Source of the DNA: a virus
Lineage: Duplodnaviria; Caudoviricetes
Length of the DNA: 24,967 nucleotides
Direction: 5' to 3' (one strand)
Virus record (IMG/VR): IMGVR_UViG_3300020043_000013
Coordinates: 1-24,967 of that record
The position numbers were made by a program, and so were the translations under genes. This document shows positions 17,013 through 24,552 of the stretch, piece by piece (the stretch's first letter is position 1; every line of letters starts with the position of its first letter). Under the pieces are notes generated by a model, which had not been told where the DNA came from, searched no databases, and saw only the letters and a program-made list of their open reading frames with translations.

Positions 17013-17627
17013 TTATAACTCCTTAGCTTTCTTCAAAGCGCTACGCACCTTGCTTGGCAAGAGTGTCCATAACGCTACCTTTTGTGAATCGTCTAATTTC
17101 TCAGACTCCAACTTCAACCAAGCATCCTTGGATTGATCTTTTTCGCAAGAATCAATTAAATCCATTGCTAACTCTTGCAAGTACTGTAGTTCCTCTGGAG
17201 GAATGTTGTCTGTTGCACCCTGTGTAGGTGTGATGATGACCTTTTCTTTTGTGCTTTCTTCTGGCAAGTCTTCACCAGCATAGATGTACAAACCAAGACC
17301 ATGCAAGCTAAGTGCTTTTGTCATGCAGCGCATGATTGCTGTGTTTACTTGGAAAGCATCAGGACTAGGAATTGCTTTGTTGCGGTAGTCCATTACTGGC
17401 AACTGGCAAGTCATTGGCTTGTCAAACATTGTGACTGTGACCCAAACCATTGATGTGCCATTAATATCCATAAAGCATTTATCGCCAAACATCTCTACTT
17501 TAAAAGTAGCCTTTGGGTCTGCCTTAAGAGCCTCTGCCCATGCCCATGCCCACGATAAGTAGGTCAGATTATTTTTCTTTTCGGTATGTGCGTTTACATC
17601 CGTTTTAAGTAGTGCTTCAATTGACAT
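17013..17627 (-). CDS. Sak3/DUF1071-like single-strand annealing protein
   Basis: EKKN.LTYLSWAWAW; MV.V.VT......LPVMDYRNK; N..IMRC..KA...HGLGLYIYAGEDLP. Confidence 0.85.
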   Translation of the reverse strand: MSIEALLKTDVNAHTEKKNNLTYLSWAWAWAEALKADPKATFKVEMFGDKCFMDINGTSMVWVTVTMFDKPMTCQLPVMDYRNKAIPSPDAFQVNTAIMRCMTKALSLHGLGLYIYAGEDLPEESTKEKVIITPTQGATDNIPPEELQYLQELAMDLIDSCEKDQSKDAWLKLESEKLDDSQKVALWTLLPSKVRSALKKAKEL

Positions 17628-18198
17628 CTTGATTCCTTTTGGTTTCTCTTATTAACTTCATTTTTAACTTTGTTTCTTCTGTATGAGGAATTCCTAATCG
17701 GTTTTTATTCCCCATCCTAGAGATTGCCATATTTTTTCTTGCTTCCTCAGTAAACGGCTTTCTTTTTTTACCAAGTTTTGCAAGAGAAATTTTCTTTTTT
17801 GTTTCTTCAGATACTGGATTCTTTGGACGCATCCGTCTTTGTATCCATGCTTCTTTTAACTTAGCTTTTGTTTCTTCTGTATGCTTTATTCCTTTTCCTC
17901 CAATTACAGAAGGGCTAATGTTAAACCCATTTGTAACAGCGTCAAGTTTTGTTAACAGCAATTGTTCATAAAACAACACATCATCTTTAGAGCAAATTAA
18001 CAATGTTTGGAATTGAAAATTTTGCTCACCATATTTATTCCATGCTCTTTGCAGTTTTGAATTTCTATGCTTGTTTTTTCTTAAGCAGCTTAGATGCGTT
18101 CTTTTTCTTTGTATCAAACTATGTGCGCTACCAATGTAGAATTTTCCAGTTTGCAAACAAGAAATTTTGTAAACACCAGTTTCTTTGGTATCCATCAT
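17617..18198 (-). CDS. GIY-YIG homing endonuclease with NUMOD3 repeats (Seg/I-TevI-like)
   Basis: GVY.I......YIGSA....R...H; EQ; GFN; HTEETK.K, SEETKKKIS, TEEARKNM, HTEETKLKM; start is ATGA-coupled to the upstream stop. Confidence 0.92.
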   Translation of the reverse strand: MMDTKETGVYKISCLQTGKFYIGSAHSLIQRKRTHLSCLRKNKHRNSKLQRAWNKYGEQNFQFQTLLICSKDDVLFYEQLLLTKLDAVTNGFNISPSVIGGKGIKHTEETKAKLKEAWIQRRMRPKNPVSEETKKKISLAKLGKKRKPFTEEARKNMAISRMGNKNRLGIPHTEETKLKMKLIRETKRNQDVN

Positions 18199-18368
18199 TC
18201 TTCCTTTAAGTATTCTTCGATCATTGCTTCTTGGTCTTCTTCGTAGAGATCGCCAAACTCTACAAAGTGATTTTCTGCACAGCATGAGCCGTATGTCTTT
18301 GGTTCAGTACAGTAAACGCAGTAAAGCGGCCCTGTTAAATCCTTGATAGCGTCTTGCCTAGTAATCAT
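18195..18368 (-). CDS. Small Cys-rich acidic hypothetical protein
   Basis: YCVYC...SCC.ENHF; ATGA-coupled start at 18368. Confidence 0.65.
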   Translation of the reverse strand: MITRQDAIKDLTGPLYCVYCTEPKTYGSCCAENHFVEFGDLYEEDQEAMIEEYLKEE

Positions 18369-18523
18369 TGGATTCTTTCGATTGGCTTTGCAACTAACCA
18401 CTTGTCACCAAGTTTAAGAACAGACCTGACCCACTTGCGTTGGTTGTACTGGTTGACTTCTTGAGGCACTTGGCTGTTGTTATAAAGCTGTCTTGCTTTG
18501 CGTCTTAATTGCTCTGTTTGCAT
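18365..18523 (-). CDS. Hypothetical basic 52-aa early protein
   Basis: MQTEQLRRKARQLY...YNQRKWVRSVLKLGDKWL; TAATG coupling, GGAG RBS. Confidence 0.65.
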   Translation of the reverse strand: MQTEQLRRKARQLYNNSQVPQEVNQYNQRKWVRSVLKLGDKWLVAKPIERIQ

Positions 18524-18615
18524 TAGCCTCTCCATGCGAGCATTACGCCCCAACCGCCAAAGATTACGATTGCTAACAAGCACTCAACTAGCGTTTGAAT
18601 AATCTTACTTTTCAT
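18523..18615 (-). CDS. 30-aa single-TM peptide, first gene of the leftward operon (not in ORF track)
   Basis: MKSKIIQTLVECLLAIVIFGGWGVMLAWRG; strong AAGGAG RBS. Confidence 0.65.
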   Translation of the reverse strand: MKSKIIQTLVECLLAIVIFGGWGVMLAWRG

Positions 18616-18630
18616 TTGGTTCTCCTTAAT

Positions 18631-18714
18631 TACCCTTGCGATCTGCTTGGGCTGAGATGAAGTATATCAAAGTAAACAGACATAACAACAACTATTTACT
18701 AAGTATTTTCCCTA
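18631..18714 (-). promoter_or_regulatory. Leftward early promoter with upstream TAGG-N7-CYTA site and 26-nt leader element
   Basis: TAGGGAAAATACTTA (18714-18700); TG-a-TATACT extended -10 (hexamer 18666-18661); leader CTCAGCCCAAGCAGATCGCAAGGGTA. Confidence 0.7.
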
Positions 18715-18727
18715 GTGTATCTTTCTT

Positions 18728-18761
18728 TCAACAAACTGTTGACTTTGCTATACTTCAGGAA
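18728..18761 (+). promoter_or_regulatory. Rightward promoter with overlapping palindromic operator
   Basis: TCAACA-aac-TGTTGA (18728-18742); TG-c-TATACT (hexamer 18749-18754); ATG 6 nt later. Confidence 0.7.
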
Positions 18762-18931
18762 TGGATAAACAAACCGCTGTAAAACTCGCTGGCTCACAAA
18801 GTGCGCTTGGCAGAATCTTTGGCATTAAGAGGGCTGCTGTCCATCATTGGAAGACAATCCCTCCTCTACGCCTATACCAACTAAAAGAACTCAGACCAGA
18901 GTGGTTTAATGACACAAGCAAAAGTAATTAA
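18761..18931 (+). CDS. cro: Cro-like HTH regulator (not in ORF track)
   Basis: MDKQTAVKLAGSQSALGRIFGIKRAAVHHWKTIPPLRLYQLKELRPEWF: P22/N15 Cro-like pattern G....LA...GI...AV..W..IP..R..QL. Confidence 0.85.
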   Translation: MDKQTAVKLAGSQSALGRIFGIKRAAVHHWKTIPPLRLYQLKELRPEWFNDTSKSN

Positions 18932-19265
18932 AGCCCTACAGAATGGCCCATTGACCTCCCATGAGGTAGCTAACCTGACTGGTATGCCACAGGCCACAGT
19001 TCTGTCAACAGCTAAGAAGCTACGCCATAAAGGTGATCTAACGACTGAGATTATCAAAGTCGGTAGCCATTGGGTTGCCCAGTACACGCTAAACGATAGC
19101 CTGATTGAGCATAAAAAGAAGGATGACGAGGATACGCGCTGCAAACTAAACCCATTTGACATTCGTAACGCCAAGGGCATTTTCACCCCTGCTGAGTACA
19201 GAGTGATGAACGCTCAGGCAAAAAGATTGTTTAAAGGCAATCCAAGTTTTACAGCAAGCAGATAA
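18909..19265 (+). CDS. Winged-helix HTH protein
   Basis: VIKALQNGPLTSHEVANLTGMPQATVLSTAKKL...G; between cro and the replication gene. Confidence 0.7.
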   Translation: MTQAKVIKALQNGPLTSHEVANLTGMPQATVLSTAKKLRHKGDLTTEIIKVGSHWVAQYTLNDSLIEHKKKDDEDTRCKLNPFDIRNAKGIFTPAEYRVMNAQAKRLFKGNPSFTASR

Positions 19266-19276
19266 TTTGCTACAAT
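19248..19276 (+). promoter_or_regulatory. Sigma70 promoter for the replication gene
   Basis: TTTACA-N17-TACAAT with TG extension. Confidence 0.7.
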
Positions 19277-19281
19277 GTTTT

Positions 19282-19347
19282 GAAACACGGCTAGGTCTGA
19301 AGTCATGAGCAGACCGAAAAGAGAACTCCCCTCCTGCCGATTGTTTC
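19282..19347 (+). ncRNA. Candidate cis-regulatory three-way-junction RNA in the initiator 5' UTR
   Basis: GAAACA/TGTTTC and CGGC/GCCG outer stem; GGTCTG/CAGACC and GAG/CTC inner hairpins joined by GAAAA. Confidence 0.55.
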
Positions 19348-19374
19348 TTTCTGGGAGATTTGCGGAGAAGTGTT

Positions 19375-20133
19375 ATGCACTATTTTCAATTTAATATTGG
19401 CGACTACATTAAAAATACTATCCATCTTTCTTTATTGGAAGACTTGGCTTATAGGCGACTTTTAGATCATTACTATGATTCTGAAAAACCAATACCCAAC
19501 GATATCCCAATGGTTTCAAGAAAGATGCGTTTGGATTCAGATGTTATTCAAAGTGTCTTAAATGAGTTTTTTGTATTGACGCCTGATGGGTATAGAAACC
19601 ATCGTGCAGACCTTGAAATTGCAAGTTATCACGAATACATGGCAAAGCAAAAAGCTAATGGTAGCAAGGGTGGTAGACCGAAGAAAACCCAAACAAAACC
19701 CATCGCTAACCCAAGTGAAACCCAAAATAACCCTAAACAACAACCACTAACCACTAACCATAAACCAATAGAGAAGAAGACACTCGGCAAACGCCTCCCT
19801 CAAGATTCTTGTTTGTCAAAAGAATGGGAAAAGTTTTGTGTTGACCACAGACCAGAACTAAACCCACAAAAAACATTTGATAACTTCAAAGATCATTGGA
19901 TTGCTCAATCTGGTCAAAAAGGTGTGAAGTTGGATTGGGATGCAACTTGGCGTAATTGGGTTAGAAATACTTACGCACCTAAACAAAATCCTGCTGACAT
20001 AGTGAGGCTCACAGTTCCGTCAAAGAATGAGCCTGATGCGGCATTGGAAAAGATTAAAGCTGATGAAAAAATAACCAGACCTCCAAGCCTTGCGGAATTG
20101 GAAAGAATGGCTCAATTAAGGAGAAAAGCATGA
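19375..20133 (+). CDS. Replication initiator, DUF1376/YdaU family
   Basis: MHYFQFNIGDY...T.HL...EDLAYRRLLD.YY..E.P; NG.KGGRP; C-terminal F.DHW......K.DW.ATWRNWVRN; GGAG RBS before ATG 19375. Confidence 0.85.
   Translation: MHYFQFNIGDYIKNTIHLSLLEDLAYRRLLDHYYDSEKPIPNDIPMVSRKMRLDSDVIQSVLNEFFVLTPDGYRNHRADLEIASYHEYMAKQKANGSKGGRPKKTQTKPIANPSETQNNPKQQPLTTNHKPIEKKTLGKRLPQDSCLSKEWEKFCVDHRPELNPQKTFDNFKDHWIAQSGQKGVKLDWDATWRNWVRNTYAPKQNPADIVRLTVPSKNEPDAALEKIKADEKITRPPSLAELERMAQLRRKA
19686..19767 (+). repeat. Iteron-like repeats (putative replication origin) inside the initiator gene
   Basis: AACCC at 19686, 19697, 19708, 19719, 19729; AACCA at 19742, 19749, 19756, 19763. Confidence 0.65.
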
Positions 20134-20563: not shown

Positions 20564-20759
20564 AAATGTAGAAAACCCAAGCGATAGGGTAATCCTCGAG
20601 CAGTCTGAGGCTCGGGAACTCTATCGTAATTGGGAGACTACTAAGAATCGAGACTTGATTCGTGCAAGGCTAGAACGTGCTGAACGAATCTACGGCTCTG
20701 GTGCTAGAGATCGTATCCGTACCTACATGAACATGATTAAAGATGGGATGCTTGAATGA
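20547..20759 (+). CDS. Hypothetical protein
   Basis: 70-aa ORF whose stop is coupled to the next gene; start uncertain. Confidence 0.55.
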   Translation: MTWSRKNVENPSDRVILEQSEARELYRNWETTKNRDLIRARLERAERIYGSGARDRIRTYMNMIKDGMLE

Positions 20760-21340
20760 GAGTTTTAGTCGCTTGCGAATACTCTGGGACAGTCAGAGAT
20801 GCTTTTATTGCTTTAGGACATGAAGCAATGTCTTGTGACTTGCTGCCAACTGATGTTGAAGGGCCGCATTACCAAGGTGATATTTTTGATGTTCTTGATG
20901 ATGGTTGGGATTTAATGGTTGCTCACCCTCCATGCACTTACCTTTCAAATGCTGGCGCAAGACATTTGTACCCTAAAAAGTTTTTAAATCAACAAAGATA
21001 TGAACAAGGATTAGAAGCAAAAGAATTCTTTATGAAGTTGTTAACTTGCAACATCAAAAAAATCTGTGTTGAGAATCCAGTTCCATCGTCAATCTTTGGG
21101 TTGCCTAAATATCATCAAGTTATTCAGCCTTATGAGTTTGGACATCCTTATCAAAAGAAAACTTGTCTTTGGTTAAAAAACTTACCGCCATTGATGGCAA
21201 CTATGTATGTGCAAAAACAAGAAAGCACTAAAGTTGTTGGTAATTGGTTTAATGCTGGTGGTAAAGATAGACAAAAAAATAGAGCAAAAACTTTTGAAGG
21301 AATAGCTACAGCAATGGCAAACCAATGGGGTGCAGTATGA
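20756..21340 (+). CDS. Compact DNA cytosine-C5 methyltransferase-like protein
   Basis: VLVACEYSG (variant motif I), SCDL, GD, AHPPCT (catalytic PC), ENP, QPYEFG...K.T.LWL. Confidence 0.75.
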   Translation: MRVLVACEYSGTVRDAFIALGHEAMSCDLLPTDVEGPHYQGDIFDVLDDGWDLMVAHPPCTYLSNAGARHLYPKKFLNQQRYEQGLEAKEFFMKLLTCNIKKICVENPVPSSIFGLPKYHQVIQPYEFGHPYQKKTCLWLKNLPPLMATMYVQKQESTKVVGNWFNAGGKDRQKNRAKTFEGIATAMANQWGAV

Positions 21341-23566: not shown

Positions 23567-23912
23567 GTATTCCGCTTTGGAGGCCATCACTAAGGGAAAC
23601 GGCACAATCCACGACTGGCGTACCTTGGTGGATGTTTTAAACCTATCCGAAACAATGGGTAGAGGCGGTATTGGCCCAGAGGTATTGCCTATCTGTGAGA
23701 AAGCCCAAAACAGCCTACATAAAGCCGCTATGCGCTATCAAGAGACAATGCATATAGGTCTGGATGGCGAAGGAATTAAGGCAATTAGAGAACTGATAGA
23801 GTATGCTGACCTACAGCAAGGAAGTATCTCAAGATCAGAGTTTGAGAGATACATTCAGAAAACAAAAGACTACATTCGTTCACATGGCGACAAGGTGGTA
23901 GAAATTGAATAA
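23454..23912 (+). CDS. Hypothetical protein
   Basis: Basic N-terminus MRKKTKRKHW, helical body; start at 23454 or 23442. Confidence 0.65.
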   Translation: MRKKTKRKHWNLIDPLTHALVGAAITQRDKLNKLRMLEYSALEAITKGNGTIHDWRTLVDVLNLSETMGRGGIGPEVLPICEKAQNSLHKAAMRYQETMHIGLDGEGIKAIRELIEYADLQQGSISRSEFERYIQKTKDYIRSHGDKVVEIE

Positions 23913-24552
23913 AGTAGAAATAGGTAATGCAACCCTGTATTTGGGGGATTGCATGGACATTCTGCCAACCTTGCCAAAGGTGGATGCGGTGATTACTGAT
24001 CCGCCTTATGGCATTGGTGCTAACAAGCAAACACTTGGCAAAGGAAAAAAACAATTTGATCGTGGTGGTGATTGGGATGATGTTTTGCCAGACATCAAAA
24101 TTTGGTTAGATTTGTCATCATTGTGTTGTTTTTGGGGTGGAAACTATTTTTCAGATCAACTTAAACCAACAAATGACTGGTTAATTTGGCACAAAATGAA
24201 TGATGGGCGTAGTTTTAGTGAATGTGAGATGGCATGGACAAACTTTGGGAAACAAGTTCGTCATTTATCCCATCATTGGTCTGGTGAAGAAAAAATGCAC
24301 CCAACTATGAAACCTTTACCTGTAATGCTTTGGACTATTGAGCAAGCTGGAAACCCTGAAACCATCCTAGACCCATTCATGGGAAGCGGTACAACAGGCG
24401 TAGCAGCAATTCAAATGGGGTGTAAATTCATAGGCATAGAGCGAGAGCCTAAATACTTTGAAATAGCTTGTAAACGCATAGAACAAGCGGTAGCACAAGG
24501 CCAGTTATTTGAGCCAGAGCCAGTAAAACAGACTCAGGAGTCCATGTTTTGA
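23905..24552 (+). CDS. DNA N6-adenine/N4-cytosine methyltransferase, beta class
   Basis: GDC, TDPPY (motif IV) preceding HPT.KP and ILDPFMGSGTTG (motif I), FIGIERE..YF. Confidence 0.92.
   Translation: MNKVEIGNATLYLGDCMDILPTLPKVDAVITDPPYGIGANKQTLGKGKKQFDRGGDWDDVLPDIKIWLDLSSLCCFWGGNYFSDQLKPTNDWLIWHKMNDGRSFSECEMAWTNFGKQVRHLSHHWSGEEKMHPTMKPLPVMLWTIEQAGNPETILDPFMGSGTTGVAAIQMGCKFIGIEREPKYFEIACKRIEQAVAQGQLFEPEPVKQTQESMF

Follow-up and report, generated by a model that had tools for sequence, protein, structure and literature searches.

A long-P2 variant of the int-alpA RNA upstream of a likely phage replication initiator gene: two loop-matching sites and a palindromic hairpin tip suggest translational control

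The DNA analysed here, the window, is a stretch of 24,967 nucleotides comprising positions 1 to 24,967 of the virus record IMGVR_UViG_3300020043_000013 (Duplodnaviria; Caudoviricetes), in which capsid, Cro-like, Sak and DUF1376 genes were identified with Pfam and which gave no match by blastn against GenBank phages. The DUF1376 gene (19375..20133, plus strand, ATG at 19375) is a likely phage replication initiator, as its product matches Pfam PF07120 (E 6e-22) and PHROG primosomal and replication-initiation families, and it is the predicted regulated gene of the element described below. Upstream of it lie a Cro-like gene and an HTH gene, and a scan of the neighbouring proteins detected no CI-like repressor. 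Between the leftward genes and the Cro-like gene lies a gap with a 22-nt inverted repeat (18658-18679 and 18736-18757, 91% complementary, arms 56 nt apart), each arm of which has TG-N-TATACT, so that the pair looks like divergent extended -10 promoters that are mutual copies. Inside the DUF1376 gene, degenerate A/C-rich repeats with an 11-bp period and an AACCC core (19678-19746) are a likely iteron origin; an origin within the initiator gene is also found in lambda O. Elsewhere in the window, a GIY-YIG/NUMOD3 homing endonuclease gene (17617-18285, minus strand) adjoins the Sak annealase gene, and two DNA methyltransferase genes are predicted at 20756-21340 and 23905-24552.

The DUF1376 gene is preceded by a predicted sigma-70-type promoter (TTTACA-17-TACAAT with a TG extension, 19248..19276, plus strand, 10/12 consensus match), which ends at 19276, six bases before the stem P1, with a predicted transcript start near 19282-19284. 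The leader that would result is predicted to fold, in both the MFE and the centroid structure, into a three-way junction on the plus strand. Its closing stem P1 is built from 19282..19291 and 19336..19347, supported by fold and covariation, and is followed by a U-rich linker to 19352. The P2 hairpin (19294..19315) consists of six base pairs (19294-19299 with 19310-19315) and a 10-nt loop, AAG-TCATGA-G, with an off-centre palindrome whose self-complementary hexamer (19303..19308) is a candidate kissing-loop dimerisation site. A conserved junction strand, GAAAA (19316..19320; AAAAG is invariant in 43 of 43 relatives and part of the Rfam consensus), leads to the P3 hairpin (19321..19333; 19321-19323 with 19331-19333), which exposes the recognition loop AACTCCC at 19324-19330. 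Two predicted partners of this loop follow on the same strand, the proximal site 1, GGGAG at 19353..19357, a predicted pseudoknot or decoy, and the distal site 2, GCGGAG at 19362..19367, a putative ribosome landing region which includes the SD-like GGAG at 19364-19367. The original prediction, a three-way junction with a GAAAA linker, had placed the outer stem, GGGAG and GGAG exactly where the sequence has them, and its fold is borne out by both structures and by covariation in 43 relatives; the palindromic P2 loop was absent from it. The leader motif occurs once in the window. The energy of its fold is ordinary (z -0.64; 51 of 200 shuffles do equally well), so that the element stands above chance by comparison with relatives and not by folding energy.

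Relatives were found through the protein as well as by pattern. The N-terminus could be matched in 63 of 80 DUF1376-homolog loci, and 58 of these 63 homologs, found by protein and not by pattern, have the leader motif at most 130 nt upstream. Two DUF1376 homologs (L002 and L031) have no leader directly upstream and a short-P2 copy elsewhere in the locus; in the L002 record this copy precedes another first gene, some 250-300 nt farther upstream. Pattern scans added at least 118 and at least 120 viral loci and at least 121 genome loci; the first viral pattern was loose, with many chance matches, and the stricter two returned the P3 stem in 104 of 113 and 113 of 122 unique matches listed. Labels of the genome matches listed include Proteobacteria, Planctomycetota, Acidobacteria, Bacillota, Chloroflexota and others, many of these matches being metagenome bins whose taxonomy may not be that of the phage's host. 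A three-stem parser, in which the tail was not a selection criterion, kept 266 unique members among the matches listed, 109 of them of the long-P2 type seen here, and dropped the remainder, including some true members with a bulged P2.

Covariation was assessed in 43 long-P2 relatives chosen from 94 unique ones. All cells of P2 and P3 (100%) are paired, those of P2 numbering 258 of 258 with 18 G-U and zero mismatches, and double-sided changes occur at five of six P2 pairs and at five of five pairs between the loop and site 1. The covariation score reaches 0.448 compared with 0.158 for shuffles and 0.06-0.11 for slid registers. The original prediction had named covariation across leaders of DUF1376 genes as a check. 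The junction nucleotides (CUAG, GAAAAG, CUGCC) are invariant or nearly so in these relatives. A -10-like hexamer is found at the same distance upstream as in the window in 97 of the 109 long-P2 members listed, compared with 7 for a control window; for the short-P2 members listed the figures are 51 of 157 and 11.

Rfam at the gathering threshold gave no match in the window and none in 20 DUF1376-homolog loci, and a match to CRISPR-DR51 (E 3.9) was rejected as chance. The Rfam search suggested with the original prediction was thus empty at gathering; below it, the window leader aligns to int-alpA (RF02996) at E 1.9e-4 over the full length of the model (positions 1-71 of 71), with P1, P2 and P3 all aligned, and scores 30.1 bits where the cut-off is 35.8. 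Both are three-way junctions with a C-rich P3 loop and a U-rich tail, the int-alpA junction nucleotides CUAG, CGAAAAG and CCUG are present in the window leader, and the location upstream of a gene in a phage or mobile-element context is likewise shared. The window leader differs in a P2 of 6 bp with a 10-nt loop, about twice as long as that of the model (4 bp and a 5-nt loop), and in a score below the cut-off. Among 20 hand-picked, pattern-found loci 17 pass the cut-off, including a long-P2 member (L371, 38.4 bits) that precedes a gene similar to the DUF1376 gene of the window; among 50 virus records 43 match int-alpA at E 5e-4 or better and 20 pass, one of these 20 being a DUF1376-homolog record (G005, locus L027) with 37.2 bits. 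The window element is a long-P2 variant of int-alpA and not a formal member. The last positions of the int-alpA model (uaAgGG) are complementary to its own loop consensus, which places site 1 inside the model; site 2 and the start codon lie beyond its end, and the printed model has no pseudoknot and no mention of a palindromic tip. The family, typed by Rfam as 'Gene; sRNA', is reportedly due to Weinberg et al. 2017. A functional study of int-alpA was not found in the literature searched, which omits most subscription papers; the name turned up there as a table entry and, elsewhere, as the designation of a gene order, and it is absent from the main text of PMC5737381 as far as that source was available.

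The pairing between the P3 loop and the tail was compared across one representative per distinct P3 loop (n=162, from many phyla, among the matches listed). The best site in a loop's own tail has a mean predicted energy of -8.6 kcal/mol versus -5.3 kcal/mol in foreign tails, the second-best site -6.8 versus -3.3 kcal/mol, and none of 5000 permutations came near either own-tail mean. Both sites reach -3 or better for 138 of the 152 loops with a start codon, and when the two sites are sought in fixed windows, both hold a Watson-Crick run of at least 4 for 117 of 143 loops against 12.4% with swapped partners. Complementarity to both downstream sites is thus kept while the sequence varies, and on this point an attempt to refute the original prediction failed. 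The designation of the loop as 'anti-SD' turned out to be too narrow, since 103 of the 143 loops are without an anti-SD word and still match both sites; for 97 of these 103 at the proximal position, and for 92 at the distal one, the loop's own window surpasses the mean of the foreign windows.

The arrangement of the two sites is regular. The junction and the start of site 1 are separated by a median of 13 nt, and the distance from the end of site 2 to the start codon is about 6 nt, mostly within 1-12 nt; in 122 of 138 loops the two sites begin 10-16 nt from each other. They are similar in strength (means of -8.0 kcal/mol for site 1 and -7.7 kcal/mol for site 2); for the loop type of the window (row L032) site 1 is predicted to be the stronger one (-8.1 vs -5.9), and in the DUF1376 clade site 2 often is, by eye, site 1 with one inserted C. 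The distal site overlaps the predicted SD by at least 3 nt in 82 of 128 cases, a partial overlap for which ribosome landing region is the better name. A putative switch between a decoy and the ribosome site is well supported by the covariation of both sites with the loop, the second site coinciding with the SD itself in part of the cases. Within the loop-site duplexes G-U is not enriched over A-C (4 vs 6 internal), the same as in controls, so strand-specific RNA pairing is supported by the comparison for the stems and not so for the loop-site pairs. As a whole, the comparison strongly supports a real and conserved element with a two-site architecture, which very probably serves translational control.

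The second variable part of the element is the tip of P2. A 4-base palindrome is present in 58 of 76 distinct P2 loops listed, compared with 32.3±3.9 (maximum 45) in within-loop shuffles and 25.7±4.0 under a pooled-composition null, and 20 of 167 P3 loops, taken as a control, have one. The palindromic cores use 13 of the 16 possible words and lie off the hairpin axis in 101 of 109 cases. In a fixed register, which was chosen after inspection of the data, 47 of 60 distinct hexamers (242 of 266 members listed) have a complementary innermost pair and 27 have both inner pairs complementary, the latter count being 2/73, 9/59 and 2/69 at shifted registers; central 4-mers are palindromic in 10 of 33 distinct ones (binomial P 2e-5). 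No 4-base palindrome is found in 55 of the 266 members listed, many of which keep a central GC and nine of which have a GACG P2 loop. The same words are depleted elsewhere in the phages (window O/E: CATG 0.63, AGCT 0.43, GATC 0.59). Self-complementarity of the loop is kept through compensatory change, and as a short palindrome cannot pair within one loop, its retention via double changes points to intermolecular pairing or to a DNA-level site. The self-duplex of the hexamer TCATGA is predicted at -5.0 kcal/mol; a cofold dimer gain of -10.4 kcal/mol was not counted, since a hairpin with a palindromic loop tends to strand-swap regardless of function. The palindromic tip suggests self-sensing of the mRNA by way of a predicted dimer; a self-complementary P2 loop was not found noted elsewhere in the literature searched, from which most subscription papers were omitted.

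The genes behind the leader are diverse. Of 137 downstream open reading frames listed, many cut by locus ends, 106 were scanned, and 67 were without a Pfam match. The 39 named ones comprise 16 of the initiator type (11 DUF1376, 4 HTH_36, 1 DUF6291), 12 HNH/NUMOD/GIY-YIG nucleases, 3 integrases, 2 antirepressor/Rha, 2 DUF1016 and 4 others, so that the leader is not specific to initiators, a correction to the original prediction, the same module standing also before nucleases, integrases and antirepressors. The named genes are plausibly, for the most part, ones whose dose matters. Long-P2 leaders are also seen before N-terminal domains other than DUF1376, such as HTH_36 and unnamed ones (L058, L062-L069, L071, L072, L074, L089, L092, L154), which in the L058-L074 group are fused to a C-terminus like that of the window protein; this shared C-terminus with differing N-terminal domains indicates that initiator modules swap under a constant leader.

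The comparison gives a fold, a promoter whose position is conserved, two sites that match the loop and keep their spacing, and a P2 tip that is palindromic. The explanation that we favour would combine them into a leader that limits translation of its own mRNA, in the window that of the likely initiator, according to its abundance. On a fresh, lone transcript, the P3 loop would pair with site 1, which is made first, leaving the ribosome site free (ON). Once leaders are abundant, two of them would kiss via the P2 palindrome, and a P3 loop supplied by the partner, or by a tail-less leader arising from termination or decay, would then cover site 2 (OFF), the simplest donor being a partner that has no tail of its own or a displaced one. 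Transcript or genome copy number would thereby come under negative feedback, for which no protein and no separate antisense gene would be required. We give this full model, with the P3 loop toggling between decoy and ribosome site and pairing of leaders in trans as the trigger, slightly less than even odds. The sign of its trans effect is inferred from the nature of the downstream genes and, for the dimer, could be reversed by analogy with IsrK, which activates its own mRNA in trans (PMC4825925, as far as available). As two full-length leaders offer two loops to a total of four sites, complete silencing cannot be explained without a further assumption. Only 87-125 of the 266 members listed have a U-tract from which a tail-less leader could be set free; a general intrinsic terminator was rejected, as no terminator-like site was called at the leader and the U-tract is not general. 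A wider claim, that int-alpA-type leaders are portable, protein-free copy-number sensors acting through kissing-loop homodimers that redirect the P3 loop from the decoy to the ribosome site, with the P2 palindrome and the P3 loop as a two-part address, is put forward tentatively. Such an address, drawn from 13 palindromes and 162 loops, would prevent cross-talk between phages and between the genes of one phage.

The same two sites could also work without any partner molecule, as a purely cis-acting switch or folding timer in which site 1 is captured co-transcriptionally and the loop subsequently moves on to site 2, so that every new mRNA is translated for a brief period, with the P2 tip being structural or a dock for a protein. 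This explanation makes the fewest assumptions about two near-equal sites, their order and their spacing, and the members listed that are without a 4-base palindrome fit it. Such a timer would favour a stronger site 2, however, and among 138 loops the stronger site is the distal one in 45 and the proximal one in 63, with 30 ties; it also leaves the 13 interchanging, off-axis, self-complementary palindromes of P2 unexplained, and we regard it as rather unlikely. The palindromes stand equally unexplained if the switch is gated by a ligand or a protein, the near-invariant junction binding a host factor or a small molecule in the manner of a riboswitch. Conservation of the junction in the 43 relatives, the presence of the motif at 58 of 63 protein-found loci and its spread across many phyla among the matches listed would suit such a gate, but the downstream genes share no metabolic theme and the junction may be conserved just to build the tertiary fold, which makes this reading improbable.

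Abundance sensing by the mRNA itself has further to be set against an RNA for immunity or exclusion that acts in trans, like C4, CI and IsrK. The main product would then be a short RNA made up of the leader only, which would silence or activate matching mRNAs when a related phage comes in and would carry in P2 and P3 a two-part code of identity. Features that recall such a code are the typing of int-alpA as an sRNA by Rfam and the free reassortment of P2 cores and P3 loops in the DUF1376 clade, where most of the 16 commonest loops occur with two to four cores. Two leader copies are present in 4 of 50 virus records and in the locus L360, and the P2 tips differ in five of five such same-record pairs, a small and hence weak sample in which random pairs would often differ too. 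The targets, however, lie directly downstream in cis at fixed spacing and the U-tract is not general, and an immunity RNA appears quite improbable. Among the tandem arrangements, the leaders at L360:1501-1543 and 1912-1954 have near identical flanks and P3 loops and the P2 palindromes CGCG and TGCA, and L243 has tandem paralogous leaders, the two copies about 590 nt apart.

A DNA-level element, be it an operator, a methylation site, a single-strand hairpin or the end of a recombination cassette with loop and sites as inverted or direct repeats, would agree with P2 cores that are typical restriction and methylation words, with a module that reassorts among genes and with loop-site duplexes without G-U enrichment, but is highly improbable for an element that reaches from 5-7 nt behind a conserved -10 box to a start codon, whose P2 on the plus strand has 18 G-U cells and otherwise no mismatch, whose palindrome is off the dyad of the stem and whose cores show no link with restriction-word avoidance, the word depletion in flanking DNA not tracking the core carried.

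Under the favoured reading, a catalogued RNA family of phages and mobile elements from many phyla, without a functional study found, gains a concrete mechanism that can be tested cheaply. If the two-site switch is true, it would explain how phages can do without a repressor in holding initiators, nucleases and integrases at low levels. If the P2 loop dimerises leaders, this would be gene control by self-pairing of an mRNA, used across many phyla, which for bacterial or phage leaders was not found described in the literature searched, mostly without subscription papers, and the family would constitute a natural orthogonal set of riboregulators for synthetic biology.

Among known systems, the leader of repZ of the IncI-alpha plasmid ColIb-P9, to which the original prediction had likened the element, also has a loop that pairs near the ribosome-binding site of an initiator and is subject to competition for that one loop (PMC4705826, in the part available). 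The analogy is otherwise loose, since the repZ pseudoknot activates, opening the ribosome site, depends on a leader peptide and is blocked by the separate Inc antisense RNA (PMC4705826, same part), whereas the type of leader found in the window has two partner sites and neither a conserved antisense promoter nor a conserved upstream ORF. Within 18500-19500 the leader is not overlapped by any promoter-like site found on the minus strand, and in relatives the -10 words of that strand show no peak (at most 14 of 107 in any 10-nt bin, by pattern test). An ATG of any kind occurs in the leader core of only 124 of the 266 members listed and none is conserved, the one at 19305 in the window arising from the CATG tip. 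On these pattern tests we rejected both a leader peptide of the repY type and an antisense promoter.

Another comparison is with the phage leader RNAs IsrK of prophage Gifsy-1, which activates translation, and CI of P4, which causes termination; both act in trans on their own read-through transcript, and CI pairs with two complementary sequences (PMC4825925). They differ from the window leader in fold, the Rfam models of C4, CI and IsrK do not match it, and a palindromic docking loop is not described in the available part of that source. For such a loop the nearest counterparts are retroviral, the DIS of HIV-1 being a six-base palindrome flanked by purines and the GACG loop of MoMuSV a kissing loop of two base pairs (PMC7357161, in the part available). 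Those loops pair genomes for packaging, whereas the loop described here is richer in A/U and belongs to a phage mRNA leader whose dimer is predicted; it shares with them the purine-flanked six-base palindrome, AAG-UCAUGA-G, and, in the nine members listed that have it, the GACG loop.
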